Below, in pieces: positions 18,535 through 46,347 of a DNA stretch of 64,000 nucleotides. A model generated the notes under the pieces. That model saw only the letters and a list, made by a program, of their open reading frames with translations, made no database searches and was not told the DNA's origin. Every line of letters begins with the position of its first letter. The first letter of the stretch is position 1. Made by a program: the position numbers and the translations under genes. This stretch comes from Fidelibacterota bacterium (GTDB lineage: Bacteria; Fidelibacterota; UBA8477; JABMPR01): contig JABIFG010000058.1 of assembly GCA_018650795.1 (NCBI GenBank), positions 9,497-73,496 of the forward strand, in the 5' to 3' direction.

Positions 18535-18650
18535 GGTAAGGAGACTGAGCTTGTCGAAGTCGGTTGGTTATCACCCTATGGTAATGGACATTTCGTCCTT
18601 CGACTCCGCTCAGTATGACAGCTCAATGTCCGAGGAATCTTATAGCTTCA
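18535..18650. repeat. Copy of the dispersed intergenic element (CTGAGCTTGTCGAAG ... CGACTCCGCTCAGTATGAC)
   Basis: Shares the CTGAGCTYGTCGAAGT core and a CTCAG(G/T)ATGAC end with the copies at 6156, 38886 and 57978. Confidence 0.4.
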
Positions 18651-20157
18651 GGGTATATCCTAGCATAATGCGATCGTTTCTATCAGTGATATAATGCATG
18701 CTGGTTGCGAAGTAATCCAGATATTTTAGTTGTTGCCAGCTATAAGCAATATCAAAAGTACCCCAGAGCATGTCGATGGCTATCCCACCTGAATAGATAT
18801 CCTGTTCCGGTCCTCGATCGATAAATGGCGATCGCCAGCCATGAAATTCACGGCTACCTGTTTGATAACCACCCGCAAGCTTTACCCTGCTATGGATTTT
18901 GTAAACAATTCCTAATTTCATGGTCAATACGTCAACCCAGGGTTGGTAACCATCTAGTGTTTGACTGGTATCACCCAGGCTGATTTTTGCTTCCGATAAC
19001 GGATTCCAAATCAAATCGAAGTAAACCTCCAATTGATCTTTTGGTTTTACAGCTATGCCAAAACTGGATTTTACCGGTAACGCGATATCCATTGATATTC
19101 CGCTTGTATCCAGCACAAAAGCTGAATCATCAGGTTGAATAAACCAATCTGCATCAGAATATTTACGAGTCATCGTGGCAGGTAAATCAAACTGAAATCC
19201 TGCCGAAAAATCAGGGGTATGAAACTGTAGTGACAAATCTAGAATATTTGCCGACCAATCACTATCCGCAGTATTAACTTTAGCAGCAGTTGTGTCATCA
19301 TAATAAAAGGCAAAACCACCATTGGGACGCCACTTATAATCTCCATAGTGTGCCCATGATATATTGTCATTTGTTGTGCCGGACAGTGATTTCATGCCAA
19401 TACCAACATTCGCCCATTCAAAAACTTCGACAGCCAGTGCTGCCTGAAGCACAGCCATATCGCCTTTCCGCTCTCGGACATATGTAAACTGGTGCAAATC
19501 CAGGGTATCGCCATCAGTATTCAGACCTGGATCAGCCCAATCCCCGATAACAGGATCGAGATAGGCTTCATTCTGATCATAATCGTATATATTCTGGTTT
19601 CGATAAGCCAGGGCTAATGCAATCGTCCGTCCACCAAAAATCGCAAGGGGTAAACCTAGACTCACATTTGAAATACCTGAGAGTTCCAACTTCTGTTCCC
19701 AGTCCCGTGCTTTATAATCCCAGAAATTCAAACCAGTATCATTCACCTTGATATCATCAGGTGTGAGCAAATTAAATAGGGAATCCACCCAAATACCGTT
19801 GTTACTATGTACAGGTTGGTAAGTTTTATCTATAATACGCAGAATAAGGGGGTCAACCCTATCTTCCATCATGACCATATTTTCAAATTGATTTCGATTC
19901 GAGATATGACCATTAAATTGAAATTGAATTCCTTCCAAACCGACTAAACCGGCTGGATTACGAAAGATATCATTCAGAGTTCCATCACCTGCCACTCCCG
20001 CGCCAGCTTTTGCCAGAGTCCAGGGGGTTTCGGTTTCAAGGTTTGCCATCCCATGCAAGAGAATCACCTCTCCATTCCCCTGCCCCAAAAGCGAGAGAGG
20101 GAAAAAGGCAATGCTTGCCAGAGTTAATATTACAGTGATTGATTTAAATTTATTCAT
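18640..20157 (-). CDS. long PorV/PorQ-like (FadL-like) T9SS-associated outer-membrane beta-barrel, 505 aa
   Basis: Signal peptide. N-terminal block AKAGAGVAGDGTLNDIFRNPAGLVGLEGIQFQF shares the xxA(R/K)xxxxGxxxxxxxxxNPAGL signature with the shorter PorV-like proteins and with its 514-aa paralog at 44802-46346. Ends in alternating barrel-type strands ...LGYTLKL. Confidence 0.5.
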   Translation of the reverse strand: MNKFKSITVILTLASIAFFPLSLLGQGNGEVILLHGMANLETETPWTLAKAGAGVAGDGTLNDIFRNPAGLVGLEGIQFQFNGHISNRNQFENMVMMEDRVDPLILRIIDKTYQPVHSNNGIWVDSLFNLLTPDDIKVNDTGLNFWDYKARDWEQKLELSGISNVSLGLPLAIFGGRTIALALAYRNQNIYDYDQNEAYLDPVIGDWADPGLNTDGDTLDLHQFTYVRERKGDMAVLQAALAVEVFEWANVGIGMKSLSGTTNDNISWAHYGDYKWRPNGGFAFYYDDTTAAKVNTADSDWSANILDLSLQFHTPDFSAGFQFDLPATMTRKYSDADWFIQPDDSAFVLDTSGISMDIALPVKSSFGIAVKPKDQLEVYFDLIWNPLSEAKISLGDTSQTLDGYQPWVDVLTMKLGIVYKIHSRVKLAGGYQTGSREFHGWRSPFIDRGPEQDIYSGGIAIDMLWGTFDIAYSWQQLKYLDYFATSMHYITDRNDRIMLGYTLKL

Positions 20158-20170
20158 ACTTATATCCAGC

Positions 20171-21163
20171 CTATCTCATCACATAGCTCAGACTAAAACG
20201 CTGAACGTATTGCAAGAAGTCATCATAATCATTATATGCATAATCGAATTTAAAATTTCCCAGGGCTACCCCAGCTCCCAGACTGAGTCCCTCAGTGAGA
20301 TAATTGATTTTATATCCTCCCCGCAAGAACAGTCTTTCTTTCAAAGCCCATTCTGCACCCACGTTATACTGTTGATCATAATCCCTGGGGGCTAGCAGAT
20401 CTGCTGCCAGAGTGAGTCTTTGAAACGAATTTGTCCCCATCAAGCCACCTTCTGGACCAAAGCATTCAGTGGCGAATCCTAAAATAAGTACCTGAGGTGC
20501 TGAAAATCCCTTCTCTTCAAATACGATGTCATCTCCAAAATGACGAACAACTGCACTGGTTCGTAGTGTTCTCCAGCCGGAGCGATAGAGCACACCACCA
20601 TCAAAAAGGATTTGATCGTCCTTGGAATAAATGAGGTCTTCCTGCACAAATTTGGCAGTGATACCAAAACTGAATTTATCTGTTACAGCTCGGGCATAAG
20701 TCAGACCCAACATGAGATGATTAGGAGAAAAGTAATCTTGAGAAGTGGCAAATGCCTGGTATTCCGCCAGACTGGAGACATTGGTTGTATGGAGTATTTT
20801 ACCAATATCATTGTATTGATACTGTATGGCAAACGTGCCTAACCGGGTTCCGAAGAGTGCAACACCTCCCATATTTCGGACATCTGCAAAATAGTTATAC
20901 ATAGACATAGACAATTCATATTTCCCTGCGTCAGTTAGCCCGGCAGGATTGTAATATACGCCATCAGCATTATCAGCCACTGCCGTAAAAGCTTCGCCCA
21001 TACCGTTGGCTCTGGCATCCGGTTTTACCTTCAGGAATTGAAATGCAGTTGTCCCCTCTTTAGTCGTCTGAGCATCAATTGTTGAGAGTGCTAACAGCAG
21101 ACACAAGGGCAAGACTATTGATTTGATTCTCTTCAATTTCATCATTCTTTCTCCTTGGGTCAC
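20171..21163 (-). CDS. PorV-like T9SS-associated outer-membrane beta-barrel (PorV/PorQ family), about 325 aa
   Basis: TAFQFLKVKPDARANGMGEAFTAVADNADGVYYNPAGLTD is the characteristic PorV-type N-terminal motif. C-terminal aromatic-rich beta-strands ...QRFSLSYVMR. Paralog at 46348-47433. Likely start MMKLKRIK (21145). Confidence 0.55.
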   Translation of the reverse strand: MTQGERMMKLKRIKSIVLPLCLLLALSTIDAQTTKEGTTAFQFLKVKPDARANGMGEAFTAVADNADGVYYNPAGLTDAGKYELSMSMYNYFADVRNMGGVALFGTRLGTFAIQYQYNDIGKILHTTNVSSLAEYQAFATSQDYFSPNHLMLGLTYARAVTDKFSFGITAKFVQEDLIYSKDDQILFDGGVLYRSGWRTLRTSAVVRHFGDDIVFEEKGFSAPQVLILGFATECFGPEGGLMGTNSFQRLTLAADLLAPRDYDQQYNVGAEWALKERLFLRGGYKINYLTEGLSLGAGVALGNFKFDYAYNDYDDFLQYVQRFSLSYVMR

Positions 21164-21165
21164 AG

Positions 21166-23445
21166 CTAGCGAATAATTACAAACTTTGTCATGGTCTGCT
21201 GTCCATCTGGTGTCTGAATGGCAACAAAATACACACCTGGAGCCAGGAGCATGTTATTCTCATTCACGAGATTAAAAGTGAGCGATCCACTCTCAGAGTT
21301 TTCATGCTCAATGCTTTGTACTTTCTGACCTGCAAAACTATAGACACGAATTGAGCATTTTTCAGGAAGTCCAAAAATACTGACTGCATTTGCAAGTGAG
21401 ACATTTTGAAAGCCACTTTCCAGAATAAAGGGATTTGGGACAATAAAAATGTTCTCAAGATCCCCTTCGGGACCAATATCCCTGCGATGTTGAGTCATAT
21501 TTGTTTTACCACTCTGAAAACCATTTACATCCCGCGTAGTAACTGAATAAAAGGCCACATCTGAAAAGGCGAAATCGATGTCATCATCTATATATTCGTA
21601 GATATTTTCAGAATTGACCTCCCCCGCTGAAATGGCGACTAATCGTTTCCAGGGACCAAGACGATTAAAACTTCTCCAGATATAAAATGAGTCCAAGGCA
21701 GCAGAGGAATGAGTAAAATCTTCAACTGCTCTTGACCAGGTAATATGGATATTGGCATCCTCATCGTTACTCACCTTAAGACCTGGTGCAGGAACTGGAA
21801 CATAGACATCATACACGCCATCTGGCTCCGTCCAATCCGGCCAACAGACGACTGAATCCTCCGCCCAGAGTGAATCATGTTCGATGTCCCATCCGGTATA
21901 GGCTTTCCAAGCCTCTCGAGCAACGTCCTGAACTGAGATAACCCCAGTTTCTGCATTGACATAATCGGGATATCCAAAAGTATCCAAATATCTGAAGGTG
22001 CTATCTCCTACTGTGAGTTCAGCATTAATATCAGGCGCTACACCCCAAAGGTCTGATTTCTGACCACCTCCAAATACCCTTTTACCTGGATCTGAACCAT
22101 ATCCAACGACCTGGGCAAAACTGAAATGAAGAATATCACCCCTGTTAATAGTATAGGGACCACAAACAAATGACGAGGCAGGCGCTTCTGCACTTTTAGG
22201 TTTATACTTGGGTCTTCCAACCCAAAACATTGGATGCTCATTTGGATCCGGTGCGTCAAGTTCTGGAAATTTACCTTGGGCCCGGCTATGTGTCTTATAA
22301 TGTGGTTTGTTGATGAGCGATGTAGAAACAAACCAACCAGCATTCTGGATAATCCCCCAGGGCTGCTTGATAGTTAAATTCTCATCCCATTCAAAGTCAG
22401 CTGCATGTTGAGCATATTCCATTGTTGTCAGATGAAAGGTCGTATCATTTGTATCAAGAACTGTCAGATGCTCCCTATCCCAATGAAGCGCTGTATGCCC
22501 CGCAGCCTGTGGTGCCAGCAATCCACCACCATTCAAACCAGTAGACGAAAACTCCCAAAAAAGATCCTCATCCGGTTCAGGATGATATGGCTTGGAGTGA
22601 TCCTGCTGGGTGCTAATGCTCTGGCAATAAAACATGGTGTAGTCTGTATCGAAACTGTTGTATACATCACCCCTGAAAATTCCTGGTTTCCAGTACCAGG
22701 AACCAAAGGTTCTCTGAAAGCTCATCATGTTAGGTGGTATAGCCGTATGGAATGCAAACAAGGCATCTACATAGGTATCTACTGAGTCCTGCTCTATAGT
22801 GTTTTCATCATAGTCCGTATTGCCCGTAAATTCCAGTTCATACTCATGGAAAATGATATCATCCAGCATTGGATAGCTGTATTGACGAGTGACCCTCGTA
22901 ACTGTCATACCCACACTGGTAGCAAATCGAGTGTGAATGAGCTGTTCAGCCTCATTTGGATCGAAATCAGGATTGAGACTACCATCTTCAAGCAGAGGAT
23001 AGTTGGTTTCTTTCCAGAATTCAAGTGGCCAGCACCAAACTTCATATTCCATCTCTGGACCGCCCGAGCCCACCATTCCAGCGAATGAAAAGTGTTTTTG
23101 ATCAACTCCCAGTTTTCCTGGATGGTTCACACCAATATGGATACCACCTCCCAGACCGTTGTGTTGACCATAATATTCAATATTATCAATAACAGTCCTT
23201 GACCAGGCTGGCCATTCGGTCATAGGTGTATTGGTTGATTCAATTCCATTATTTTTGTAGGGGGCTACGAAGACTCCCGTGTTATAAAAAGTCTCATGGA
23301 GGGTACCGCGATCATGGACCAAACGCTCACGTTGAGCCCATAAGCCAGAAGTAATACTCATCAGCAATATGACATATAATACCAATTTTAAGCGATTTGA
23401 CATAGCAGTCTCAGTTGAACTTTCCTGATATATATAGTTCATCAT
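21166..23445 (-). CDS. large secreted protein of unknown function with a type-A T9SS CTD (unrecognised family; paralog of 47430-49793)
   Basis: Signal (MSNRLKLVLYVILLMSITSGLWAQ, probable start 23403). Conserved blocks shared with the paralog: EWPxxSxTVxxxIxYxGQHNxxGGGIHIGxNxxxK, HFSFxGxVGxGGPE and GGLLAPQAAG. CTD IFIVPNPF...GVYFVAIQT...KFVIIR. Confidence 0.6.
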   Translation of the reverse strand: MMNYIYQESSTETAMSNRLKLVLYVILLMSITSGLWAQRERLVHDRGTLHETFYNTGVFVAPYKNNGIESTNTPMTEWPAWSRTVIDNIEYYGQHNGLGGGIHIGVNHPGKLGVDQKHFSFAGMVGSGGPEMEYEVWCWPLEFWKETNYPLLEDGSLNPDFDPNEAEQLIHTRFATSVGMTVTRVTRQYSYPMLDDIIFHEYELEFTGNTDYDENTIEQDSVDTYVDALFAFHTAIPPNMMSFQRTFGSWYWKPGIFRGDVYNSFDTDYTMFYCQSISTQQDHSKPYHPEPDEDLFWEFSSTGLNGGGLLAPQAAGHTALHWDREHLTVLDTNDTTFHLTTMEYAQHAADFEWDENLTIKQPWGIIQNAGWFVSTSLINKPHYKTHSRAQGKFPELDAPDPNEHPMFWVGRPKYKPKSAEAPASSFVCGPYTINRGDILHFSFAQVVGYGSDPGKRVFGGGQKSDLWGVAPDINAELTVGDSTFRYLDTFGYPDYVNAETGVISVQDVAREAWKAYTGWDIEHDSLWAEDSVVCWPDWTEPDGVYDVYVPVPAPGLKVSNDEDANIHITWSRAVEDFTHSSAALDSFYIWRSFNRLGPWKRLVAISAGEVNSENIYEYIDDDIDFAFSDVAFYSVTTRDVNGFQSGKTNMTQHRRDIGPEGDLENIFIVPNPFILESGFQNVSLANAVSIFGLPEKCSIRVYSFAGQKVQSIEHENSESGSLTFNLVNENNMLLAPGVYFVAIQTPDGQQTMTKFVIIR

Positions 23446-23454
23446 AGTAGTCCC

Positions 23455-26379
23455 TTAAAAAGTCCACTGAACGCCAAGGCGAAAATAGCGAGGAGCGTTT
23501 TGATAGTAGCGAATGTGCTGGGGGAAATCCATGGGAGAATAATCACTTTCCACCATAACAGCATCGATGTCGCCTGCCTCATATTCTTCAATTGCTTCAA
23601 AGTCCTTAAATAAGGAATAGGCATAAACCTTTTCGTTCAAGACATTAAAGATAGTGAGGTTAAGGTTGAGTTTCTGTTTCCCAAAACGCATGTTCTTAGC
23701 AATTTTCATCTGAAGATTATTCTCGTCAGGACCGACTTTATTGAATTTTGTTCCAATTGCTTCTTCAGGACCATAGTACGTATAGGGTCTTCCCTCTTGA
23801 AAAGTGAATTTCGTATTGACTGAGATACCAGAGATAGGTTGTACTCCAAAGATCTGGGGTCCGAACCCGCTGGGAGTTTTATAGCCGATATTTGTGATAA
23901 TCCTGTTTCGGCGATTATAGTTCATGATCACATCTTCAGGTTCCGGCGCGCGATTATTCTCATGATCAAAATCATAGCGCCCATCTGAACCTTCCTTGTA
24001 TGATAGGGTAGCGTCAAAGGGTGTGGGGTTCTTGCCAATTGCTTTCTGGAAATTATAGCGAACGCTCATATTAAAGTTGCCCTGTTTTCTAACAAGACTC
24101 AAACTGAAGCCCTTGATATTGGCATAATCAAGATTGGCAAATCCCTTATAATCAGATCCGGTTGAATCCTCATAGAAGACCGTCTGCACCAGATTTTTCA
24201 CATCCTTATAATAGGTCGAAATATTTAACCTGAAACCAAAGGGTAGTCCCTGAACCAGACCAAAATCATAGGCATTGGTTCGTTCTGGTTTCAATCGGGC
24301 ATTACCCAATTCATCAACCTCATTGCCTGTAATATCATAATAGCGACGATAGATTTTGTCAAAATTGGGACGCTGAGTAAAACTTCCATAGTTAACATGA
24401 ATCACCGAGCGATCATTGACCGGATAAGAAAAGCCCAACCTGGGTTGCAGGTGGTAAACCAACTCGGTTTTGGCAGTTTCTGCTAATTCAGGATCGTTAA
24501 AAGGTCCACGTAAACCTGGTGGTAAACTCGCATCATAATTCGGATTAGCAGTCGGATGGAAAAGATTTGTAAAATATTCATAGTTATAATTATAAAAGTC
24601 AAAACGTAGACCAATATTTGCAACCAGACCCTCGAATTCCATCTTGTCCTGGACATAGAAAGCTCCCTCGTAGGGTTTCTCATGATATGTCAGGATTTGA
24701 GCATTTGGTGAACTCGCCGATGCAGACCGCTCCGTACGCAGATCATAGCTAAATAGTTGCCATCCAGCTTTTATCAAATTTCCCATGTTGAGTTGTTTAT
24801 TCCAGGATCCATAAAAGCGCAGGGTGCTGGTCTCCTCAGTAGTATAGCTATTTTCCAGGACCTTATTATTCAGATCACCAGGTAACCAGATGGGCGTATT
24901 AAAATCGCTCCCAAAATTTGAACCCATCCATTCAGGATCACGTACAGGATATCTGTGAGCATAGTCCGTGGTAAAACTCCTCAGGTTCATCTCCATATAG
25001 GACTTTTTACTAAATATGTGCTCCCAGCGAAGACCATAATCTGCTGCCTGGTTTCTATCACGGTGAGGGCCATAATCAGGATTGAAAATTTTAACATACC
25101 TATTCCCAACACTCCAATTGAGCTTATCGGAGGCAAAGTAATTCAGGGAAATGATTAGTTTGTTTGAGAAATCCGGTGCCCATGAAAAATTGGACATGAG
25201 CTGTCTTGATTTATTTGGAAAAGCGGTCAAGACTTTGGTTCCATCTACCTGCTGTCTGACTGCCAGAAAGATTCTGGTCTTGTCAGACACGGGTCCACCA
25301 GTTGAAAGATCAATGCGGTAATCCGTCACTTCATCATACGACAATCCTATTTGTCTGGCAAAAGCCAGGTATTGAGCCCGAGCAAACTGAGCCACTTTAA
25401 GACTGTCCTCATGGGTGGCATTTTCGAGATCCACATAATTAGCGTAGGAGCCATTGCTATTCCAGTTAATCAATGATTGACTGGAATCCTGCTGACTGAC
25501 CTGAAGCCAATTCTCTGCGTCCCCTCCAAACAGATTGTGAGGTCTGACATCTTCGCTCCAGGCAGATCCACCCCAGTGATTATAGTGCGGTAATGTTCCG
25601 GAGTAATTCACCTTGGTACTCCAACGCTTTCCGCCTGTTTTGGGGACCATATTGATTACCCCTGACTGAGCATTTCCATACTCAGCCGAGAAACCTGAGG
25701 TAAACACTTCCACCGCCTGAAGACCAGAGGTCATCGGCTTAAAGGAAGCTTTATTGGATAATGGGTTTACTATACTAGCTCCACCGATCAGATATTGAGT
25801 TTCGGCTTCACGACCTCCACGAACATTATCTTCAACAATATCAGCATTGAGATCAATAATATCCTGGACATCGTAGATTCCAGCCACTTCCTCAAGTTCT
25901 GACATGATATAGTTCTGTTTAGTAGCGGTGAGATCTTTTTGAATCATGTCAGATCGGAAGGCGGTTACCAGAATATCATCCAGGAGTAATGATTCGGAAC
26001 TCAAGTCAAAAAATATTTCAGTAGTTTTGTCTACGTCTATGCGCACCATTTCAATCTTTTTTGACTGGTAGCCCATCATGTGGGCTTCGACATTGTAAAA
26101 ACCAGGCTCAAGATTAAGGATATAGAAACGACCATCAAGATCTGTGGCAGCTCCAAGAGGTCTACTCAATGGTTCGATTTCTCCACCGACCCAGCGCTCA
26201 TTAATAATAACGTTGGCACCAATCAGTCCCTTATCAGTTCCAGTATCACGAACAGCTCCAGAAATTTTACCCGTTTGATCTGCCATTACTGAGGATTGAA
26301 TGATCAGAGCCATCAGTATGGCGCTTTTTATTCGTTTTATCATTTTTGGGGATTGTGGCATAAAGCCTCTCCTTAGCAT
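23455..26379 (-). CDS. TonB-dependent receptor (carboxypeptidase-regulatory-like N-domain, plug, 22-strand-type barrel)
   Basis: GKISGAVRDTGTDKGLIGANVIINE...DGRFYILNLEPGFYNVEAHMMGYQ; plug ...TSGFSAEYGNAQSGVINMVPKTGG; terminal YFRLGVQWTF. Paralog at 49828-52746. Confidence 0.8.
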   Translation of the reverse strand: MLRRGFMPQSPKMIKRIKSAILMALIIQSSVMADQTGKISGAVRDTGTDKGLIGANVIINERWVGGEIEPLSRPLGAATDLDGRFYILNLEPGFYNVEAHMMGYQSKKIEMVRIDVDKTTEIFFDLSSESLLLDDILVTAFRSDMIQKDLTATKQNYIMSELEEVAGIYDVQDIIDLNADIVEDNVRGGREAETQYLIGGASIVNPLSNKASFKPMTSGLQAVEVFTSGFSAEYGNAQSGVINMVPKTGGKRWSTKVNYSGTLPHYNHWGGSAWSEDVRPHNLFGGDAENWLQVSQQDSSQSLINWNSNGSYANYVDLENATHEDSLKVAQFARAQYLAFARQIGLSYDEVTDYRIDLSTGGPVSDKTRIFLAVRQQVDGTKVLTAFPNKSRQLMSNFSWAPDFSNKLIISLNYFASDKLNWSVGNRYVKIFNPDYGPHRDRNQAADYGLRWEHIFSKKSYMEMNLRSFTTDYAHRYPVRDPEWMGSNFGSDFNTPIWLPGDLNNKVLENSYTTEETSTLRFYGSWNKQLNMGNLIKAGWQLFSYDLRTERSASASSPNAQILTYHEKPYEGAFYVQDKMEFEGLVANIGLRFDFYNYNYEYFTNLFHPTANPNYDASLPPGLRGPFNDPELAETAKTELVYHLQPRLGFSYPVNDRSVIHVNYGSFTQRPNFDKIYRRYYDITGNEVDELGNARLKPERTNAYDFGLVQGLPFGFRLNISTYYKDVKNLVQTVFYEDSTGSDYKGFANLDYANIKGFSLSLVRKQGNFNMSVRYNFQKAIGKNPTPFDATLSYKEGSDGRYDFDHENNRAPEPEDVIMNYNRRNRIITNIGYKTPSGFGPQIFGVQPISGISVNTKFTFQEGRPYTYYGPEEAIGTKFNKVGPDENNLQMKIAKNMRFGKQKLNLNLTIFNVLNEKVYAYSLFKDFEAIEEYEAGDIDAVMVESDYSPMDFPQHIRYYQNAPRYFRLGVQWTF

Positions 26380-26510: not shown

Positions 26511-26547
26511 CAAAAAAGAGGGCAGTCCGTATACCAGACTACCCCCT
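26511..26547 (-). terminator. Rho-independent terminator downstream of the 1500-aa gene
   Basis: Minus-strand reading AGGGGGTAGTCtggtatacgGACTGCCCTCTTTTTTG: 8-bp stem (one G·U), 9-nt loop, T-run. A second hairpin GCCCGcaCGGGC lies at 26477-26488. Confidence 0.55.
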
Positions 26548-26572: not shown

Positions 26573-29500
26573 TTACTTGAGTAAGATCATTTTTCTAGCT
26601 TGACCGTAGCTGCCAGCCTGGATACGATATATATACATACCGGCGCCAACGGGTCGACCATTTTGATCAGTACCATTCCAGATAGCCGTATGATAACCAG
26701 CATCTCTGGACTCGTTCACGAGCGTTGATACCAATCGACCCTTGAGATCATAGATACTCAAAACAACCTGTGAAGCTTCTGGAAGTCCATAGCTTAAAGT
26801 GGTTGCAGGATTAAACGGATTGGGATAGTTATTTTCCAAAACATAGTCATCGGGAATGATACCTTCAGCATGAAGACCTACTGCTGTAGCATCTACAGTC
26901 AGTGTAAATGGGCCATTAGAAGCTGATACAGGATCAGCAACACCGTCTGATATGGACATCGTCCATGATCCAGCGGCTGTTCCATCATCCGGCAGGGCGT
27001 CTGCAAGTGCAGCATAGGTGATATAGGCCATAGAACTTCCCTCAAGAATAAGATCGTTTGCAAGGAATCCTAAATCATCTGATCCCTCCAAAGTTATCTC
27101 AAGTTCATCACCATCCACATCAATCAGATCGGACCATGTAAACCATAGTGTATCACCGAGTGTTGTGGAAGTAATCGTAACTGTTGTGGCATCTGCTGGT
27201 GTATTCAATGCAAAGTCCGTTGGTGCATCGTTAACTGCATTCACAGTCACCATCATGGTATCGCTGACTGTGGCTCTGGTAGTTGGATTGCTGGCGGTAA
27301 AGACGATTTCAGTGCTACCATTGGCATCAGGCAAGAATTGCAGGGTAACCACGTTGTCTGTAACCGATGCAAAGACCAGTGATTCATCACCAATCACATG
27401 ACTGTAAATCAGTTCTTGATCAATATCAATAAAGACTGTATCCAGATCGACCAGCAGCAGATCCGCAGCATCCTCATCTACCATGACATCGGCAATTGGA
27501 TTGATGACGACTGGCAAATCATCAACTGGACCAACGACGAGTACAAAACTGGTTGTAGCATCCAATAGGCCATCGCTGACTACAACATCAATGTTTGCTG
27601 TACCGCTCCAGTTGGCAGCAGGTGTCAAAGTCAGCATAGCATCAACCAGGAAGGAAGGCACCACGTTGGCTTCATCTGAAGTTGCCGAATACGTCAAGGC
27701 ATCCTCTTCAGCATCAACAGCGATGATGGGCACCACCAGGATTGTATCTTCACCAGTAAACTGTGCTGGAATGTCTGTAATCACAGGTGCAGTGTTGGGC
27801 ACAAAGGTTCCCCAGTTACGGTCACCAATATTGTCCCCATCGCTAGCAGCGCCCACATAGGCAGATGTTGAAGCGAGGCGAAAATCACTGGCTGCGACAT
27901 CAGCAAACATAGGATCGGCCACACCGATGCAGTTCGTTGATGCTGGAACTTTGTCATTATTGCGTGAATCAAAGTTAAACCAACCACTATAATACAATGA
28001 ATCTGGATAGGCATCGATTGGTTCAGCAGTATTTTTTGTCACATTCCATCTCTGAACATTTGAGAATATGTTATTCCCAACAAATGTCCCTGCTTCACTA
28101 CCGAACAACTTGATTGTGTGGTTATTAGCAATACTATAAAATGTACAATGGTTTATAGTTACGATTGAAGGATCTGATCCATCATCGTAATTTGATATTC
28201 TAATGGGAAGGATCAGATTTGAGAAAGTACAATCTTCGATCAGGATGACAGAAGCAGCTGGAATGGTATCGACATCGCTGGGGTTATTTGCATCACCCAT
28301 AAAATCAAGCGGTCTGGCAAACAGCAAATTTGAAAATTTGCTGTTCGTGATACTTAAAGTATCCAGACTAGAACCATCTGAAGTGCTTTCCAAAAATTCT
28401 TGTCTGACGGCTTTCTCACCATTTCTGAAATCACAATTGTCAACCACAAGGTTATTGATACCGGGTTGGCCATAATCCATCAGCGTATCACTGTATACTA
28501 CAAATACGCCAATCGTATCTGTGGCCATTGCCAGATCTTCTTGACCAAAAACCAGACCTTGCAGGCTTATATCAGCCCAGGCTCGAATAAGATTTTCGGT
28601 AATATCTCCTTGTCCATAGGCAAACTCTATTACAGGTTTTTCGGTGAGCCCATCAGCTGCTTTGATTGTTATTGGCTTATCCACAATGAAAGTCGTGTCT
28701 GTGTACATTCCTCCATCTGTGGTGAGCACAATAATATCACGAGCATTTGCCGTGGCGATGGCATTTGATATGGCATACATACCTGCTGCCACTTCAATTT
28801 CATTACCGCCTGGTCCCATGTCGACCATATCATATCGCAGGGTTCCCATTATCTGATAGCCATCGTCGCGTGGATCTGATGAATCATACTGGGTGACAAC
28901 ACCCTTGAGATCCATGAGTACCTGAGGAGGATACCAACCGTCTAAATCGGTATCACTATCAATCCTGAGTGTAACTGTATTGGTGCCATCTGTCAGATCG
29001 ACACTGGCACTGTTTCCGTCAGTTGGCCAGGTAGATGGGTCAACGAGATAAACATCATCAACTTTGATAAATGAACCTTCATTGGCCTCACCCAGTAGAT
29101 CCAGGGTGATTAATGTTGGTACTCTTGCGTTTTCCGTACTCAGGACAGAAACACTGGCAGCGGTCACCTCAAGTTGGGTCAGACCGTTATACTGACTCAC
29201 CTCACCAAAGACCTCTACTTCATCTCCAATATTTAGAACTAAGTCCGTTCCGTCTGCATGTAATACAATTCCGGCTGTGGCATCCTGAATGTGATAGGCA
29301 CGATAGTAACCACCATAGTCAGGAGAAGTTACAATACCCATAACATGAACCAGATCCCCGAGTTTGTCTGGAACTAAATTAGCATCGGAGTCTAAACGAG
29401 CATCAGCAATGGAGATTACTGGTAGTACAATAGAGAAGGCTGCGTCACTCACATCTGAAACAGCTCCATCCTCCACTACGGTTAGACGGACACTGCAAAG

Positions 29501-31075
29501 CGTGGAGAGTTCATTTGGAATAGTCCAGGTATAGGTACCCAGGGTTGCATCCACACTGGCTGCTAATTCAGTCCAGGTAGTGCCATCGCTGGTATACTCA
29601 ATCTGTACATTGGAAATAAATCCAGAATCCCACGTAATTTCATAGTCTTCACCAACTTGCCATTCTTCGCCACCGTTTGGAGCAGTGAGCGTAACATAAG
29701 GAGATACAATTGAGAAGGTAGCATCTGACACATCAAAGGCTGTTGCATCTGCAGCATCTGAAATCTTTACCAAGCATGTGGGTGAATCAGCAACTGGTAG
29801 TGTCCAGGCGTAGGTCCCCAGAGTAGCATCCACAGAGGCAGCAATTTCAACCCATGTGGCACCGTCATCTGTCGTATAATCCAATTTGACATTTGTAACA
29901 TTGTCGGTTACCCAGGTGATATCATGACTTGTGCCCTGCAACCAGATTTCTCCACCGTTGGGTGCCCCAACGACGATAACGGCTGCACCGTCAGCTCCGT
30001 ATTCAAAAGCACCAATATCAAAAGGAGTCAGGCGAGCATAGCCGCGTGCATCATTCAGAGGGATATCTATACTATTAATAGCGGTTGCATCACCAGCATC
30101 AATGGCAACTGATCCCGGATTCAAAGCTATAGTTGGCACACCAAGAGTAGTATTGTTAGCCGCTACATCCGAAGCCAAATTTAATGCTGAAATATCATAG
30201 ATATTATTCGTTCCGAGCAAAGTACCCGATATTCCGACAGTGTCGCCGACAACGTTATAGTCGCCATCAATAGCCTGAGTCGCTGGATCAAAAAGTGAAA
30301 TATCATATGCTGAATTGTTGGCAATAATATTATTTTGTAAATAATAGGTGCCAGTATTCCCTGAATTATTGGGACGCATGACGATACCACCATCATTATC
30401 AACAATAGTACAGTTGATGATAGTCATCTTATACGTGTCCTTATTCCATAATTCGACAACACCTTCGAAACCGGTATTATTGGATATGGTACTATTCAGC
30501 ATCACGGCGCCATCTTTTTTTACGATACAAACCGCAGCACCAGTTTGAGCAGATTGGCCTTGGTTATAGTCTATGGTGCAATTATCAATCATTAGCCTGG
30601 ATCCAGCTCCACCGATTCCAGCCCCTTTTTTAGCATTCACCATTTTGTTTCTGGTAACATGCAGGTTTACTAGAAAGACATCGTCTTTTCCACTTGCGAT
30701 CTCAATTCCGGCACCATGGCTCGATCCATTTTTCTGAGCGTGCTGCACAGTCATGTCACGAATCACAACATTTGGTTCAGCATTTACTAAAAACACAGGA
30801 TCAGTATCTACACCTGTCTCAGTGGTAGGATCAACAGCCTGGGCCTGGACAATCGTCTGGTCTGCGCCCTGTCCCATAATCACTACTGCAGCGCCGACAG
30901 TAACTGTCTCGGTAAAAGTTCCTGCAGCAAGACTGACAGTATCACCTGCAGCTGCACCCAGAATTGCTGTATTAATACTTTCCCCTACAGCGACGTTATG
31001 AGTTATTGCCTGACCCAGACTACAAAAAACAGTCATTGCCAGAATCAAACTAAAAATGGTTAGCTTTCTAAACAT
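26573..31075 (-). CDS. giant (1500 aa) secreted multidomain protein: N-terminal beta-helix, three tandem ~55-aa beta-sandwich repeats, second beta-helix region, cadherin/Ig-like repeats, type-A T9SS CTD
   Basis: Signal MFRKLTIFSLILAMTVFCSLGQA. Beta-helix rungs NCTIDYNQG.../NNTGFEG.../NCTIVDNDGG. Repeats GGEIWLQGTSHDITWVTDNVTNVKLDYTTDDGATWVEIAASVDATLGTYAWTLP (three copies). VNAVNDAPT and VTDNVVTLQFLPDANGSTEIVFTASN are cadherin-like. CTD ENNYPNPFNPATTLSYGL...GMYIYRIQ...RKMILLK. Strong SD AAGGAGAGAGCACC-ATG. Confidence 0.75.
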   Translation of the reverse strand: MFRKLTIFSLILAMTVFCSLGQAITHNVAVGESINTAILGAAAGDTVSLAAGTFTETVTVGAAVVIMGQGADQTIVQAQAVDPTTETGVDTDPVFLVNAEPNVVIRDMTVQHAQKNGSSHGAGIEIASGKDDVFLVNLHVTRNKMVNAKKGAGIGGAGSRLMIDNCTIDYNQGQSAQTGAAVCIVKKDGAVMLNSTISNNTGFEGVVELWNKDTYKMTIINCTIVDNDGGIVMRPNNSGNTGTYYLQNNIIANNSAYDISLFDPATQAIDGDYNVVGDTVGISGTLLGTNNIYDISALNLASDVAANNTTLGVPTIALNPGSVAIDAGDATAINSIDIPLNDARGYARLTPFDIGAFEYGADGAAVIVVGAPNGGEIWLQGTSHDITWVTDNVTNVKLDYTTDDGATWVEIAASVDATLGTYAWTLPVADSPTCLVKISDAADATAFDVSDATFSIVSPYVTLTAPNGGEEWQVGEDYEITWDSGFISNVQIEYTSDGTTWTELAASVDATLGTYTWTIPNELSTLCSVRLTVVEDGAVSDVSDAAFSIVLPVISIADARLDSDANLVPDKLGDLVHVMGIVTSPDYGGYYRAYHIQDATAGIVLHADGTDLVLNIGDEVEVFGEVSQYNGLTQLEVTAASVSVLSTENARVPTLITLDLLGEANEGSFIKVDDVYLVDPSTWPTDGNSASVDLTDGTNTVTLRIDSDTDLDGWYPPQVLMDLKGVVTQYDSSDPRDDGYQIMGTLRYDMVDMGPGGNEIEVAAGMYAISNAIATANARDIIVLTTDGGMYTDTTFIVDKPITIKAADGLTEKPVIEFAYGQGDITENLIRAWADISLQGLVFGQEDLAMATDTIGVFVVYSDTLMDYGQPGINNLVVDNCDFRNGEKAVRQEFLESTSDGSSLDTLSITNSKFSNLLFARPLDFMGDANNPSDVDTIPAASVILIEDCTFSNLILPIRISNYDDGSDPSIVTINHCTFYSIANNHTIKLFGSEAGTFVGNNIFSNVQRWNVTKNTAEPIDAYPDSLYYSGWFNFDSRNNDKVPASTNCIGVADPMFADVAASDFRLASTSAYVGAASDGDNIGDRNWGTFVPNTAPVITDIPAQFTGEDTILVVPIIAVDAEEDALTYSATSDEANVVPSFLVDAMLTLTPAANWSGTANIDVVVSDGLLDATTSFVLVVGPVDDLPVVINPIADVMVDEDAADLLLVDLDTVFIDIDQELIYSHVIGDESLVFASVTDNVVTLQFLPDANGSTEIVFTASNPTTRATVSDTMMVTVNAVNDAPTDFALNTPADATTVTITSTTLGDTLWFTWSDLIDVDGDELEITLEGSDDLGFLANDLILEGSSMAYITYAALADALPDDGTAAGSWTMSISDGVADPVSASNGPFTLTVDATAVGLHAEGIIPDDYVLENNYPNPFNPATTLSYGLPEASQVVLSIYDLKGRLVSTLVNESRDAGYHTAIWNGTDQNGRPVGAGMYIYRIQAGSYGQARKMILLK

Positions 31076-31147
31076 GGTGCTCTCTCCTTCGAATTAAATT
31101 CTTGAACAGATACTATAAAATGTTGCTACATATAATTAATGGTAATA

Positions 31148-31165
31148 GTATACTAATTATACCCA
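31148..31165. promoter_or_regulatory. GTATA-N5-TATAC palindrome about 80 bp upstream of the 1500-aa gene
   Basis: agtatactaattataccc in the 290-bp AT-rich leader region 31076-31362. Confidence 0.3.
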
Positions 31166-31362
31166 CCCAGACAAATACTATTCTACTTTTTTCCTCCCCG
31201 AAAAGCCTTTTGTTATAGGGTTAGGCTAATGTATGTTGAAAAACTGGGTGGAAATAGTGGAAATTTATTGATGATAATTTTTATCAACTTATGAACTGTT
31301 TTCCCCAGTTTCACCGTCCATACCTTAGATACTCTCATTGAGTTCTATTGTCATTAAATGCG

Positions 31363-31698
31363 TTACAAACTTATACCAAAGTACTGCAACACCAACTGGT
31401 CTAATCCCGTATTCTCAAGCGCATGCCGTTCCCCTGCCTCAACAACCACGGTTATACCCGTCATGAGATCGTAATGACTGCCCTCTATGGTGATAACTCC
31501 AGATCCACTCTGCACAATGAATATCTCAATCAGGTCCTTATGAACATGCTCCTCCACCTTTTCACCTGGGGGATATGCCGATTGTGCCAGGGTAGAAATA
31601 TTCCCGATCTCATGATATTTCAATATGACCTGCTTCTTAATTCTTGGATTGTGAGAAACAGAATCTTGAGGCAATTCTTTAAGATTAACAAGCTTCAT
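31363..31698 (-). CDS. cupin-domain protein
   Basis: 111 aa; GEKVEEHVHKD...EIFIVQSGSGVITIEG...VVVEAGERHALENTG is the two-motif cupin_2 signature. Confidence 0.7.
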   Translation of the reverse strand: MKLVNLKELPQDSVSHNPRIKKQVILKYHEIGNISTLAQSAYPPGEKVEEHVHKDLIEIFIVQSGSGVITIEGSHYDLMTGITVVVEAGERHALENTGLDQLVLQYFGISL

Positions 31699-31713
31699 AT
31701 TATTTATGCCTGG

Positions 31714-33222
31714 TTATCCCTCGTCATAAAACTGATAGTCCCGGTGATTGTGCAGGTGCTTCCTGGCATATTTTTCATTGGAGAAATACTTCCAGACTTT
31801 CTTGCCCTTTTTAGTTTTGAAAAATGGATCGGCTGCCTGTATCGGTGGATACTGTTCCAGAACCTTCTCAAAATATTTTCTGGCTTTCAATACATCAGGA
31901 TCGGAGGAATCCGACACATTTTTATATCCATGTCCGTCTCTACTATCCCCACAATCGTAAAAACGCCCCTGTGGCATATCCAGAATTGGATTCAGGGCTT
32001 CAAGCAAATAACGTCTGGTACGCATGAGCTGCGTTGTGCCAACTGCACTATAAATCCAGTCCCTGTGCGCGTCTGAATCACCATTAAAAAATGGTTTCAG
32101 GCTCTTGCCGTCGACTTCATAGCCACGGGGTAAGTCACCACCAGCATATTCAACCACCGTTGGCAGGATGTCTGAGAGATCTGTCATTTCTGCAGTGAGT
32201 CCACGCTGTTTCACCGGACCACCAAAGGCTACAAAAGGAACGCGACAGCCCCTCTCAACTCCTCGAGATTTTGCGGTGGAACCTGTTCCATTGTCTGAAC
32301 AATAAATAATGATGGTGTTATCAAGAATATCCAGATCTTCCGCTTTTTTGATAATTTGCCCAACCAAAACATCGATATACTCATTCATAGCGGCAAAACG
32401 AGCCTGTTTCTCGCCTGATTCCAATCCGCCACCGATTTCACCCTGTTTACCGCGCAGCGGTGTGGTGGCTGGTCCCTTTCGAGTACCATGTGGTGCGACC
32501 ATGGGGTAGTATGCCAAGAAAGGTCCCTTTTTATTTCTCTCCATAAAATCACAAACAAAATCTGTAAATATCTGTGGTCCATAATCATCAGGTTTGGTAT
32601 CTAGCAATTTATGATTCTGGATAATCCCGGGGTGCCAATAGCGAGCAGTCGTAGCTTCATCTTCCCAGGCGCCTTTGTGTTTGGGTGATCCCTGTAGCTT
32701 TTTGATTTCACCTTTTGATTCCCAGAGGCAGTATTCTTCAAATCCACCCGTTTCAGAGTAGGGTGTACCTCTACCAAGATGCCATTTCCCTGCAATAGCC
32801 GTGGCATATCCAGCCTGTTTGGCCAGTTTCCCAAAACTATGATGATGGGCATGCAGATCTTCACTATTTTTTGCAACAGGATATTTGAAATTATTATGAT
32901 AAAATCCGGTACGATTCGCATATCGGCCTGTCATGATCATCGCTCGTGTCGGGCTACAAATGGCGCTGGACCAGGCGGTATCAAACTGAACTCCCTCCCT
33001 GGCTATTCTATCGATATGGGGAGTTTTTACCTCGCTATTTCCATAACAACCATACAGATCGGGACTCACGTCATCTGACATGATCAGAACAATATTCGGA
33101 CGATCCCCCGATTTGCTTTTCTTACCAAAGATTCCTGAATGTGCTAGTTGTGGTAGCGATATAGCAGCAAGTCCAACACCTGCTTTGCTTAAGAATTGAC
33201 GTCTATTCAGGTTATTTGTCAT
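31714..33222 (-). CDS. S1-family sulfatase, Tat-secreted
   Basis: NRRQFLSKAGVGLAA; MSDDVSPD...CSPTRAMIMTGRYANRTG. Confidence 0.9.
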   Translation of the reverse strand: MTNNLNRRQFLSKAGVGLAAISLPQLAHSGIFGKKSKSGDRPNIVLIMSDDVSPDLYGCYGNSEVKTPHIDRIAREGVQFDTAWSSAICSPTRAMIMTGRYANRTGFYHNNFKYPVAKNSEDLHAHHHSFGKLAKQAGYATAIAGKWHLGRGTPYSETGGFEEYCLWESKGEIKKLQGSPKHKGAWEDEATTARYWHPGIIQNHKLLDTKPDDYGPQIFTDFVCDFMERNKKGPFLAYYPMVAPHGTRKGPATTPLRGKQGEIGGGLESGEKQARFAAMNEYIDVLVGQIIKKAEDLDILDNTIIIYCSDNGTGSTAKSRGVERGCRVPFVAFGGPVKQRGLTAEMTDLSDILPTVVEYAGGDLPRGYEVDGKSLKPFFNGDSDAHRDWIYSAVGTTQLMRTRRYLLEALNPILDMPQGRFYDCGDSRDGHGYKNVSDSSDPDVLKARKYFEKVLEQYPPIQAADPFFKTKKGKKVWKYFSNEKYARKHLHNHRDYQFYDEG

Positions 33223-38703: not shown

Positions 38704-38810
38704 CCTGGATTCACAGTCCTATCATATTGTATATATAACACTAACAGAAGCAGTCCTATTTTTAATGTATTTATATAGTAACATCAATCTATTGTGTCTT
38801 TATGTATATT

Positions 38811-38820
38811 TAGTATACTA
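38811..38820. promoter_or_regulatory. 10-bp perfect palindrome TAGTATACTA inside the shared block TCAATCT..TATGTATATTTAGTATAC, about 110 bp upstream of the gene start
   Basis: The same block (tcaatct...tatgtatatttagtatac) recurs at 42716-42739 upstream of the paralog that starts at 42611. Confidence 0.35.
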
Positions 38821-38885
38821 TATATTTTAATCATTCCAAGGAATACCTAAACAGTTATTTAGTGACACCAGAAAGTGAGAATTGT

Positions 38886-46346: not shown

Positions 46347-46347
46347 T

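Follow-up and report, generated by a model that had tools for sequence, protein, structure and literature searches.

A conserved cassette of TonB-dependent receptor, type IX secretion cargo and two outer-membrane barrels as a candidate polysaccharide-uptake module in Marinimicrobia and related phyla

How might bacteria without SusD capture polysaccharides at their outer membrane? PULs are recognised today by the SusC/SusD gene pair, so their prediction is confined to Bacteroidota. Yet CAZymes are also plentiful in Marinimicrobia, Ignavibacteriota, Calditrichota and KSB1, phyla that abound in the dark ocean as well as in sediments and bioreactors. The stretch of DNA analysed here (64 kb, hereafter the window) is a fucosidase/sulfatase locus of Marinimicrobia (Neomarinimicrobiota), relevant to how recalcitrant sulfated fucans are turned over in an oxygen-poor water column. 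It contains five GH29 genes, whose products have lipobox-like N-termini, at least six sulfatases, with TAT motifs, and GH141-like/beta-helix CTD proteins. At least 12 CTD proteins are encoded in all, and a T9SS would therefore be expected in the host genome. As had been predicted, there is no SusD: none of the SusD families (PF07980, PF12741, PF12771, PF14322) was found among the 34 window ORFs of at least 150 aa.

Positions 18640-26379 of the window hold four tightly packed genes on the minus strand, each with exactly the coordinates given in the original prediction. The intergenic gaps in this copy (copy 1) are 9, 2 and 13 nt, the second widening to 20 nt if gene 3 starts at an ATG, which is likelier than the GTG. 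A second cassette in the window (copy 2, 44802-52746) is an old paralogue of the first. A terminator-like hairpin between the receptor gene and the gene for an upstream 1500-aa CTD protein is likely, from its sequence, to delimit the cassette transcription unit at its 5' end; since the total of terminator-like sites across the region was not above that of shuffled sequences, this site was judged solely on stem length and position.

23455-26379, minus strand: gene 1, copy 1, TonB-dependent receptor, 974 aa
21166-23445, minus strand: gene 2, copy 1, CTD protein, 759 aa
20171-21163, minus strand: gene 3, copy 1, PorV/PorQ-family barrel, 330 aa from GTG or 324 aa from ATG at 21145
18640-20157, minus strand: gene 4, copy 1, remote FadL-superfamily barrel, 505 aa
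49828-52746, minus strand: gene 1, copy 2, TonB-dependent receptor, 972 aa, 38% identity to copy 1
47430-49793, minus strand: gene 2, copy 2, CTD protein, 787 aa, 40% full-length identity to copy 1
46348-47433, minus strand: gene 3, copy 2, PorV/PorQ-family barrel, 361 aa
44802-46346, minus strand: gene 4, copy 2, long FadL/BamG-like barrel, 514 aa, 26% identity to copy 1
26517-26547, minus strand: terminator-like hairpin, 13-bp stem with seven GC pairs, then a T-run

The layout is conserved far beyond chance: receptor, CTD protein, PorV-like barrel and long barrel recur in the same order and on one strand in all related loci whose flanks are sufficiently intact. All four ORFs are complete in 62 loci, where median gaps are 21-24 nt. 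By record title, the MAGs carrying the cassette belong to Ignavibacteriota, Calditrichota, KSB1 and Neomarinimicrobiota (Marinimicrobia), so that the predicted order holds in four FCB phyla or more; some are labelled Bacteroidetes or Cytophagia, going by the record labels. Several genomes hold two or three copies. Distant relatives that share only the FN3 and CTD module of gene 2 form triads in three loci, in which the gene sits between a CarboxypepD_reg/Plug receptor and another gene; this next gene encodes a PorV-like protein in two of them and an unannotated 323-aa protein in the third (L089).

The neighbours of the cassette vary by substrate, from fucosidases and sulfatases in the window to KduI/pectate-lyase-type enzymes, heparinase, alginate lyase or chondroitinase B elsewhere. 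GntR/FCD regulators lie upstream in 14 of 54 cases, and heparinase II/III, chondroitinase B and GH2 genes also occur there. In 47 of 55 loci the adjoining downstream gene codes for a CTD protein, and in 34 of the 55 it has DUF5123. A literature search found no description of the cassette in the searchable literature. We lean towards reading it as a four-protein outer-membrane polysaccharide-uptake machine, the counterpart of SusC/SusD in FCB phyla without SusD, in which the CTD protein would be delivered by the T9SS and tethered by the PorV-like barrel.

Gene 1 is assigned to the TonB-dependent receptors, as a divergent member outside SusC/RagA. In copy 1 a signal peptide is followed by a CarboxypepD_reg-like N-terminal domain (residues 39-138), a putative TonB box and plug, and a barrel; the last residue is Phe. 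PF00593, the model for the 22-strand barrel domain, gives 69.2 bits in copy 1 and 73.8 in copy 2 against a Pfam cut-off of 27, and the N-terminal domain reaches 40-43 bits with PF13715 and PF13620 (cut-off 32), bearing out the expectation of a receptor with a carboxypeptidase-regulatory-like domain (69 bits and 40-42 bits for the two parts). Pfam Plug (PF07715) stays below threshold, with no match in copy 1 and 16.8 bits against 23.9 in copy 2, whereas the receptors of the distant triads do match it. Three motifs were located by reading the sequence:

25960-25980, minus strand: TonB box DDILVTA, copy 1 (residues 134-140)
52369-52389, minus strand: TonB box EDVVVTA, copy 2
25639-25713, minus strand: plug end VEVFTSGFSAEYGNAQSGVINMVPK, copy 1

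Both the TonB box (DDILVTA/EDVVVTA) and the plug end, V(E/Q)V.TSGFSAEYGN.QSGV.NM.PK, are nearly invariant among 25 orthologues. The order of parts, a CarboxypepD_reg-like domain ahead of the putative TonB box and plug and then the barrel in a large TonB-dependent receptor, is that of SusC/SusD (RagA/RagB) systems. Unlike SusC, however, the cassette receptor matched the generic TonB-dependent model and not SusC/RagA TIGR04056 (no match at E<=0.01 in either copy), and a PDB profile search returned no SusC-like chain, only weak matches to PhuR and Cir.

Gene 2 had been described as a 759-aa protein with a type-A T9SS CTD and no catalytic motif, and this description held. TIGR04183 scores 29.3 bits on copy 1 (cut-off 23), and no other Pfam or NCBIfam family was found; PF18962 reaches 20.3 against a cut-off of 27. 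Copy 2 falls below the TIGR04183 cut-off at 18.7 bits, yet its 40% identity to copy 1 runs through the CTD. The signal peptide of copy 1 (residues 1-37) ends at an SPI-type cleavage site between A and Q, with no lipobox. An AF2 model (pLDDT 81, pTM 0.83) is all-beta and divides into three parts:

21811-23334, minus strand: beta-supersandwich N-domain, about residues 38-545 (AF2 model)
21481-21789, minus strand: FN3 domain, about residues 553-655 (AF2 model)
21169-21450, minus strand: divergent type-A CTD, about residues 666-759 (TIGR04183 and AF2 model)

The model contains neither a catalytic (alpha/alpha)6 or TIM domain nor a SusD-like fold. Of the two kinds of fold for which a Foldseek search had been suggested, SusD-like or glycan-binding, the first is absent; the supersandwich does resemble domains of carbohydrate enzymes, and the best structural matches of the N-domain are the non-catalytic N-terminal domains of GH15, GH65 and GH94 enzymes. 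By Foldseek, the closest T9SS structures are PorZ (21% identity over 129 columns) and then PorU, whose CTDs the C-terminal beta-sandwich of the model resembles. Among NCBIfam models, too, the CTD is matched best by the C-terminus of the PorZ model (E=5e-8), and it forms a distinct subtype when compared with 10 generic CTDs from the same window. The PorZ CTD is retained and bound by PorQ, and cognate PorV-like barrels have been proposed to shield CTDs from cleavage (PMC10202324).

Conservation of gene 2 is high, with about 40% identity between the paralogues; within the family, pairwise identity is 0.61 in the CTD, the most conserved part, 0.55 in the N-domain and 0.49 in FN3. Many Asp, Glu, Arg, His and Tyr residues are invariant. 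This is unusual for a binder of different glycans and fits a conserved structural or enzymatic role better. The invariant residues would also suit a reading in which gene 2 is an unrecognised T9SS-secreted beta-sandwich hydrolase or lyase, the barrels are its export adaptors and the link to the receptor is a matter of shared PUL-like regulation, and new fucanase families do keep appearing (PMC12786026, PMC11943901). We consider this improbable: the family occurs in loci for chemically different substrates, has no sequence similarity to any CAZyme in PDB or Pfam, and finds its nearest structural relatives in domains without catalytic function. The concern that the protein might be an ordinary enzyme linked by coincidence was not realised either, in that no enzyme family was matched and the model consists of supersandwich, FN3 and CTD.

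If gene 2 is instead the receptor's surface partner in an uptake machine, as we favour, gene 3 is the candidate for holding it at the surface. NF033709, the PorV/PorQ family model, scores 157.8 bits on copy 1 and 161.8 on copy 2 (cut-off 90), and the gene 3 family profile matches PorV (6h3i_F) at E=1e-17. On these matches we class gene 3 as a true PorV/PorQ-family barrel, in agreement with the prediction of a PorV-type barrel from its FLKVKPDARANGMGEAFTAVADNADGVYYNPAGL motif, which is present; a generic FadL without PorV/PorQ likeness is not what was found. It falls below the equivalog cut-offs for PorQ (NF033711, 93.8 against 220), PorV (NF033710, 67.2 against 250) and PorVQ2 (47.4 against 325).

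Gene 4 had also been proposed to be PorV/PorQ-like, on account of an N-terminal NPAGL signature. The motif is there, but family membership did not hold up: NF033709 has no match in copy 1 and 27 bits in copy 2 against the cut-off of 90. In an hhalign comparison the gene 4 and gene 3 families align in just 75 N-terminal columns, at a probability of 97.7%, and the NPAGL segment is all that the two have in common. The PorV-like profile aligns this stretch to TodX residues 11-40 as well; the motif is a general feature of the FadL superfamily. The best PDB match of the gene 4 family profile is BamG (9hiv_F), a weak one (E=1e-6, 30.9 bits), followed by TbuX, CymD and TodX with E values between 1e-4 and 5e-3; Toluene_X (PF03349) scores 24.7 and 25.0 bits against a gathering threshold of 29.7. 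Gene 4 can thus be placed in the FadL superfamily only; we class it as a remote member outside PorV/PorQ whose best solved relative is BamG. Its predicted model has a pLDDT of 30.

The FadL-like barrel BamG is docked on BamA, where it holds BamH, a surface protein (PMC12611786, PMC12578637). In the Bacteroidota BAM structures (9hiv, 9hj3) it does not transport, docks onto a larger barrel and grips its surface protein by extracellular loops. Gene 4 resembles it in having a conserved N-terminal tail, although the similarity is remote (with NF053685, whose cut-off is 250, 16.1 and 33.8 bits) and gene 4 exceeds it by about 75 residues, belongs to another operon and is multi-copy. With FadL, TodX and TbuX it shares the superfamily and the N-terminal NPA(GL) segment. 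Such relatives, and the membership of both barrels in the FadL superfamily, could point to lateral-diffusion channels for hydrophobic or amphipathic compounds that have nothing to do with the T9SS, leaving the CTD protein as ordinary cargo. This seems to us very improbable. Gene 3 passes a curated PorV/PorQ model at 158 bits, the closest solved relative of gene 4 is a non-transporting barrel, the surroundings speak for polysaccharide degradation rather than lipid or aromatic catabolism, and the CTD of gene 2 co-varies with the PorV-like barrel.

This co-variation was measured by partial Mantel tests on distances among 55 complete cassettes, a test whose type I error is inflated on related sequences. 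The gene 2 N-domain pairs with the receptor (partial r 0.82), the signal lying in the receptor from residue 261 on (0.74) and not in its first 260 residues, the NTE and plug (-0.03). The gene 2 CTD pairs with the PorV-like barrel (0.43) and not with the receptor (-0.09), and the PorV-like barrel with the long barrel (0.56). The co-varying segments do not adjoin one another on the DNA, a pattern that speaks against simple linkage; the blocks may come from shared selective regimes instead of contact.

These pairings bear on a further explanation, in which genes 2-4 would be a private PorZ/PorQ/PorV-like secretion or attachment module for the neighbouring CTD CAZymes, gene 2 would handle cargo or lipopolysaccharide, and the receptor would merely be co-transcribed. 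Several observations fit it: the family of gene 3, the PorZ and PorU CTDs as the nearest to that of gene 2, the frequency of an adjoining CTD protein gene, and the fact that gene 2 stays highly conserved where the CAZymes of the loci differ, which suggests a substrate-independent role. We nevertheless regard it as unlikely, since the N-domain co-varies most with the receptor and not with the barrels, is a carbohydrate-enzyme-type supersandwich unrelated to the beta-propellers of PorZ, and comes with a receptor that is always the first gene, in the distant triads too. The PorQ-PorZ and PorV-PorU pairs of Porphyromonas gingivalis are alike in joining a PorV/PorQ-family barrel to a CTD protein whose CTD stays bound to the barrel (PMC10202324). 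They differ in belonging to the core secretion apparatus, outside which the cassette lies; the cassette is also multi-copy, diverged and always downstream of a TonB-dependent receptor, its gene 3 is below the PorQ and PorV equivalog cut-offs, and the body of gene 2 is unrelated to the PorU peptidase as well.

The uptake reading thus draws on the PorZ/PorU-like CTD subtype and the pairing by co-variation, which support the original prediction of a SusC/SusD-analogous surface module with a T9SS cargo partner. It is an analogy and not a homology, because the receptor lies outside the SusC family and its partner has no SusD-like fold. As in SusC/SusD systems, the gene for the surface partner, here a predicted one, directly follows that for the receptor, DUF5123 is often on the next gene, receptor and partner N-domain co-diversify, and there are several copies per genome in loci rich in CAZymes, sulfatases and regulators. 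In contrast to SusD, an all-alpha TPR lipoprotein, the partner combines a beta-supersandwich, FN3 and a T9SS CTD; two FadL-superfamily barrels are obligatory; and the cassette is found in Ignavibacteriota, Calditrichota, KSB1 and Marinimicrobia MAGs.

We infer that gene 2 may be exported and retained by its CTD, and that it may cap the receptor. All four proteins would cross the inner membrane by Sec, and gene 1 would be inserted in the outer membrane as a TonB-energised importer. Gene 2 would fold in the periplasm, use its CTD for export by the T9SS and then be handed over to its own PorV/PorQ-family barrel. This barrel would hold the uncleaved CTD, as in PorQ/PorZ and PorV/PorU, and so tether the protein to the surface without a lipid anchor, while the beta-supersandwich N-domain would serve the receptor on its extracellular side, either as a lid or as a partner that binds glycans. 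The long barrel and the PorV-like barrel could together form a scaffold comparable to BamG docking BamH to BamA. In the window, T9SS-exported beta-helix/GH141-like enzymes would cleave sulfated fucan outside the cell, the receptor would import the oligosaccharides, and the sulfatases with TAT signals and the GH29 fucosidases with lipoprotein signals would finish their degradation in the periplasm.

More generally, and more tentatively, the non-Bacteroidota FCB phyla (Ignavibacteriota, Calditrichota, KSB1 and Marinimicrobia/Fidelibacterota) might use TonB glycan importers with a T9SS cargo partner, held by a PorV/PorQ barrel through its uncleaved CTD, and a BamG-like barrel serving as scaffold. 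The triad, of which there are thousands of diverged metagenome clusters, might then be a PUL marker and its CTD protein the first T9SS cargo to take part in a nutrient transporter as a stoichiometric subunit. The conserved cassette would provide a marker gene set for the polysaccharide loci of these phyla and a mechanism that joins type IX secretion to TonB-dependent import. It would also offer a natural setting in which to test the idea that specific cargo is retained by cognate PorV-like barrels that protect its CTD.

SprF-type barrels are thought to be necessary for the secretion or anchoring of their own cargo. SprB-SprF and other type-B CTD cargo pairs resemble the cassette in that the cargo gene adjoins that of its own PorV-superfamily barrel, but the cassette CTD is type-A-like (TIGR04183), its barrel is of PorV/PorQ type, and its tie is to nutrient uptake, where that of SprB is to gliding adhesins. 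PorP/SprF models (TIGR03519 and PF11751) had no match at E<=0.01 in any of the four window barrels. A weak PorP_SprF flag appeared on a single distant relative (L088).

The cassette comprises four closely spaced genes on the minus strand (18640-26379), and the coordinates originally predicted for all four ORFs match those in the window exactly:

23455-26379, minus strand: gene 1, TonB-dependent receptor (974-aa ORF)
21166-23445, minus strand: gene 2, T9SS C-terminal-domain (CTD) protein (759-aa ORF)
20171-21163, minus strand: gene 3, PorV-like barrel (330 aa from a GTG start; 324 aa from the ATG at 21145)
18640-20157, minus strand: gene 4, long barrel (505-aa ORF)
26517-26547: hairpin with a 13-bp stem and a T-run, found by a terminator scan, dividing the cassette from the upstream gene

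Intergenic gaps are 9, 2 (20 with the ATG start of gene 3) and 13 nt. Terminator-like sites in the window are no more numerous than expected by chance, and only this long hairpin was singled out; a sigma-70 promoter scan also gave no excess (25 sites vs 21 +/- 4.7 in shuffles), and nothing in the window matched Rfam at gathering thresholds. A second copy with the same gene order (44802-52746, minus strand) is found 26 kb from the first within this locus. Its receptor, CTD protein and long barrel share 38%, 40% and 26% protein identity with their counterparts in copy 1, and a repeat search aligned the DNA of the two copies in short stretches only, indicating that the duplication is old. A recent origin was thereby ruled out, and the copies are old paralogues.

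A protein identical to gene 2 is already recorded from a Candidatus Marinimicrobia MAG. The gene 2 family forms 149 close clusters in a set of 5.8 billion proteins, with named sources in Marinimicrobia, KSB1, Calditrichia, Melioribacteraceae and Fidelibacterota, and among GTDB species representatives 157 loci were confirmed for it. Both copies, 90-93% identical to those of the window and likewise ~26 kb apart, are present in the nearest of these genomes, a Neomarinimicrobiota MAG from the Black Sea. When all eight cassette proteins of the window were searched by tblastn against 86 fetched loci, the order receptor, CTD protein, PorV-like barrel, long barrel on one strand was found in every locus with enough intact flank, ruling out a coincidental linkage of the four genes. 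All four ORFs are complete in 62 loci, with median gaps of 21-24 nt and narrow size ranges (about 940-1010, 727-804, 318-367 and 489-549 aa for genes 1-4), and several genomes hold two or three cassettes. One apparently barrel-less locus (L066) has 100-N scaffold gaps on its flanks and is uninformative. MAG labels such as "uncultured Cytophagia", "Bacteroidetes bacterium", "Lentisphaeria" and "Gammaproteobacteria", attached to 15 of 80 loci (e.g. L018, L033, L073 and L086), look like coarse or mis-binned taxonomy.

Directly downstream of the long barrel, usually within a few tens of nt of its end, a fifth gene of 420-560 aa (across loci L007-L086) encodes a CTD protein in 47 of 55 loci, with DUF5123 domains in 34, Beta_helix in 17 and Flg_new_2 in 15. 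Upstream neighbours include GntR/FCD regulators (14/54) as well as heparinase II/III, chondroitinase B and GH2 enzymes. These neighbours mark the cassette as an ancient operon, carried along with polysaccharide loci of differing specificity. In the window itself, DUF5123 proteins are placed otherwise, upstream of copy 1 (26573-31075) and at 11015-13606.

Gene 1 is a TonB-dependent receptor (PF00593, 69 bits) with a CarboxypepD_reg domain at residues 39-138, and its TonB box, DDILVTA (residues 134-140), and plug-end motif are nearly invariant among 25 orthologues. It does not match the SusC/RagA model TIGR04056, and its profile finds PhuR and Cir alone among solved structures, both weakly. We therefore place it in a deep, unnamed receptor lineage that has the SusC domain order.

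Genes 3 and 4 had both been predicted to be PorV/PorQ-like barrels, which proved correct for gene 3 only. Gene 3 scores 158 bits against the PorV/PorQ family model (cut-off 90), and its family profile matches PorV (6h3i_F, E=1e-17); it belongs to the family yet lies outside the PorV, PorQ and PorP/SprF equivalogs. By HMM, gene 4 falls outside PorV/PorQ. It is a member of no curated family and resembles FadL below threshold; the best match of its family profile, ahead of TbuX, CymD and TodX, is BamG from the BAM complex of Flavobacterium (9hiv_F, E=1e-6). The two barrels resemble each other (hhalign 97.7%) only over the N-terminal 75 columns, which include the NPAGL motif. This motif had been taken for a PorV-type signature, a reading that falls away: in the search with the PorV-like profile, this segment aligns to residues 11-40 of TodX, making NPAGL a feature of the FadL superfamily. 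Such FadL affinities, together with the transporters trailing BamG in the gene 4 search, are what could be said for both barrels being FadL-type channels; given the PorV/PorQ membership of gene 3 and the BamG match of gene 4, we regard this as very improbable. BamG is itself a FadL-like but non-transporting barrel that docks on BamA and whose loops hold the surface protein BamH (PMC12611786; PMC12578637). Word-indexed homologue searches with gene 4, whether started from one sequence or from a 32-sequence profile, recovered nothing beyond the query and one 73% relative, the family being too divergent for this kind of search; homologues were drawn instead from the related loci. An AF2 model from a 3-sequence alignment was too poor to use (pLDDT 30). 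The predicted signal-peptidase site of gene 4 leaves an N-terminal Gln, and across the window and loci L007-L086 the mature N-terminus is highly conserved (consensus AQHRGDNLSFQG).

The body of gene 2 matches no model in Pfam (2025) or NCBIfam (June 2026); only the CTD does. An AF2 model from a 40-sequence alignment has a pLDDT of 81 and a pTM of 0.83, and the protein runs from a signal peptide (A|Q) through a supersandwich N-domain (~38-545) and an FN3 domain (~553-655) to the CTD (~666-759). In Foldseek, the closest T9SS structures are PorZ (21% identity over 129 columns) and PorU. The predicted structure holds no catalytic (alpha/alpha)6 or TIM domain, and we consider it improbable that gene 2 is an unrecognised beta-sandwich enzyme. 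In an alignment with ten generic type-A CTDs of the window, the CTDs of both cassette copies form a separate subtype in which the PNPF motif is displaced by ~12 residues and a motif of their own, GLPxxC[ST]IR[IV]YS[FY]AGQ, appears. In NCBIfam this CTD best matches the C-terminal end of the PorZ model (E=5e-8), and its top PDB sequence match is PorZ again (5m11), weakly (E=0.054). Within the gene 2 family the CTD has the highest mean pairwise identity (0.61, vs 0.55 for the N-domain and 0.49 for FN3); its conservation of 0.64 compares with 0.46 for fifth-gene CTDs, an imperfect control in that the fifth-gene proteins are not orthologous. PorZ and PorU are cargo proteins that retain their CTD, bound to PorQ and PorV, and it has been proposed that PorV-like barrels protect the CTDs of their cognate cargo against PorU (PMC10202324).

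Two nearly invariant cysteines mark the gene 2 family, one in the N-domain (FAFCGGVG, residue 122) and one in the CTD (GLPxxCTIRI, residue 697), and a disulfide between them is possible; copy 1 in the window has Ala at 122 and keeps Cys 697. The predicted signal-peptidase cut of gene 2, LWA|QRE, exposes an N-terminal Gln at the head of a highly conserved mature N-terminus (consensus AQxREYRIHDRGMLHE). In both gene 2 and gene 4 these features recall the "Q-rule" of Bacteroidetes and the N-tail of BamG, which is likewise conserved.

Building on the established parts, folds, gene order, genomic context and co-variation, we infer export, CTD retention, contacts and glycan binding for a SusCD-analogous glycan import machine, a reading we hold with slightly better than even confidence. 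The T9SS would export gene 2, whose CTD would remain on the dedicated PorV/PorQ-family barrel (gene 3), so that the protein stays on the surface. Its supersandwich N-domain would be the lid or binding partner of the receptor barrel, glycan would be imported by the gene 1 receptor, and the long barrel (gene 4) would scaffold the assembly. Such a machine would work like SusC/SusD without being a member of that system: gene 1 falls outside TIGR04056, and SusD-family proteins are absent from the whole window.

Co-variation across 55 complete cassettes (L007-L086), measured as partial Mantel correlations, is suggestive as to mechanism; these are correlations on related sequences, and their permutation p-values are optimistic. 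The N-domain tracks the receptor (0.82, p=0.001), specifically from residue 261 on (0.74) as opposed to its first 260 residues, which hold the N-terminal extension and plug (-0.03). The CTD tracks the PorV-like barrel (0.43, p=0.001), and this barrel tracks the long barrel (0.56, p=0.001). Other pairs are weak: -0.09 for CTD and receptor, 0.05 for CTD and long barrel, and 0.09 and 0.02 for FN3 and its flanking domains. A finer split yields one block of receptor plug, receptor barrel and N-domain thirds, and another of receptor N-terminal domain, FN3, CTD and both small barrels. These blocks are non-contiguous on the DNA, which counts against simple linkage or recombination as their cause. Phylum-level phylogeny was rejected at this resolution as an explanation, the ratios of between- to within-phylum distances being alike for all parts (1.12-1.27). 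The cassette might instead be a locus-private attachment module serving neighbouring CTD enzymes, as the frequent CTD protein in fifth position would allow; we think this unlikely, the strongest correlation being that of the N-domain with the receptor. Separately, the receptor CarboxypepD_reg domain (residues 39-138, nt 25966-26265) is encoded farther from the two barrel genes than any other segment, yet it co-varies much more with the PorV-like and long barrels (r 0.66-0.72) than with the plug and barrel of the same receptor (r 0.47-0.57). This could point to a contact in the periplasm or to common machinery to which these parts are co-adapted.

The window is a single extended polysaccharide locus. 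Each of its 34 ORFs that reach 150 aa is on the minus strand, and they include five GH29 alpha-L-fucosidases, six sulfatases plus one fragment, several beta-helix/GH141-like proteins, and CBM, PKD and BNR proteins; at least 12 window proteins carry a T9SS CTD. The sulfatases begin with twin-arginine (TAT) motifs (RRKF, RREF, RRQF) and lack CTDs, and the GH29 enzymes have lipobox-like signal peptides, also without CTDs; CTDs are borne by the beta-helix/GH141-like, CBM and PKD proteins. Judged by these signals, the enzymes of this putative sulfated-fucan locus appear cleanly divided between periplasmic and T9SS-exported, the division of labour to be expected if depolymerisation at the surface were followed by import and periplasmic trimming. 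Endo-fucanases have been reported in GH141 (PMC12786026).

An exhaustive gene 2 profile search of 1.84 billion representatives recovered ~25 full-length clusters at 50% identity. At E<1e-10 it recovered 2137 clusters, and many of these have no more than FN3 and CTD in common with gene 2. Three distant relatives (L087-L089) were looked up. In L087 and L089 the gene directly before the relative encodes a CarboxypepD_reg/Plug receptor; in L088 an uncharacterised ORF, truncated by the contig, stands there. The following gene is PorV-like except in L089, where it encodes an unannotated 323-aa protein and where other genes occupy the place of the long barrel. This gene order suggests that the triad of receptor, CTD protein and PorV-like barrel may lie at the centre of a far larger superfamily. 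The searchable literature, which leaves out many subscription papers, returned no description of the cassette under Marinimicrobia, Ignavibacteria, Calditrichota, KSB1, PorV, PorQ, PUL or T9SS, and the Caldithrix genome paper mentions BtuB and thiamine receptors only. We did not find the combination of TonB-dependent glycan uptake with a cargo-plus-cognate-barrel T9SS adaptor described.

Several other features of the window deserve mention. A third TonB-dependent receptor (8477-10900, minus strand) is of an unrelated family, with OMP_b-brl_3, CarboxypepD_reg and Plug above threshold; it has neither a CTD partner nor barrels, and it starts at a GTG within the end of the upstream beta-helix gene, the two overlapping by 14 nt. 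Between a 1500-aa CTD protein and a sulfatase, 640 nt (31076-31713) hold no convincing gene and no Rfam match; a plus-strand ORF there (31423-32076, 217 aa) has no Pfam match, overlaps the sulfatase gene and is probably spurious. Four paralogous BNR/PSII_BNR (Sortilin-Vps10-like) proteins stand in a row at 37336-44763 (minus strand), three of them with PKD or dockerin modules and CTDs, and a 294-nt direct repeat of 80% identity (39067-39360 and 41034-41327) falls inside this run. The one at 42850-44763 (minus strand), directly downstream of copy 2, is a T9SS CTD protein that combines BNR/Sortilin-like repeats with a type I dockerin (E=3.7e-7) and a weak cohesin match, a cellulosome-type module in a Marinimicrobia surface protein.
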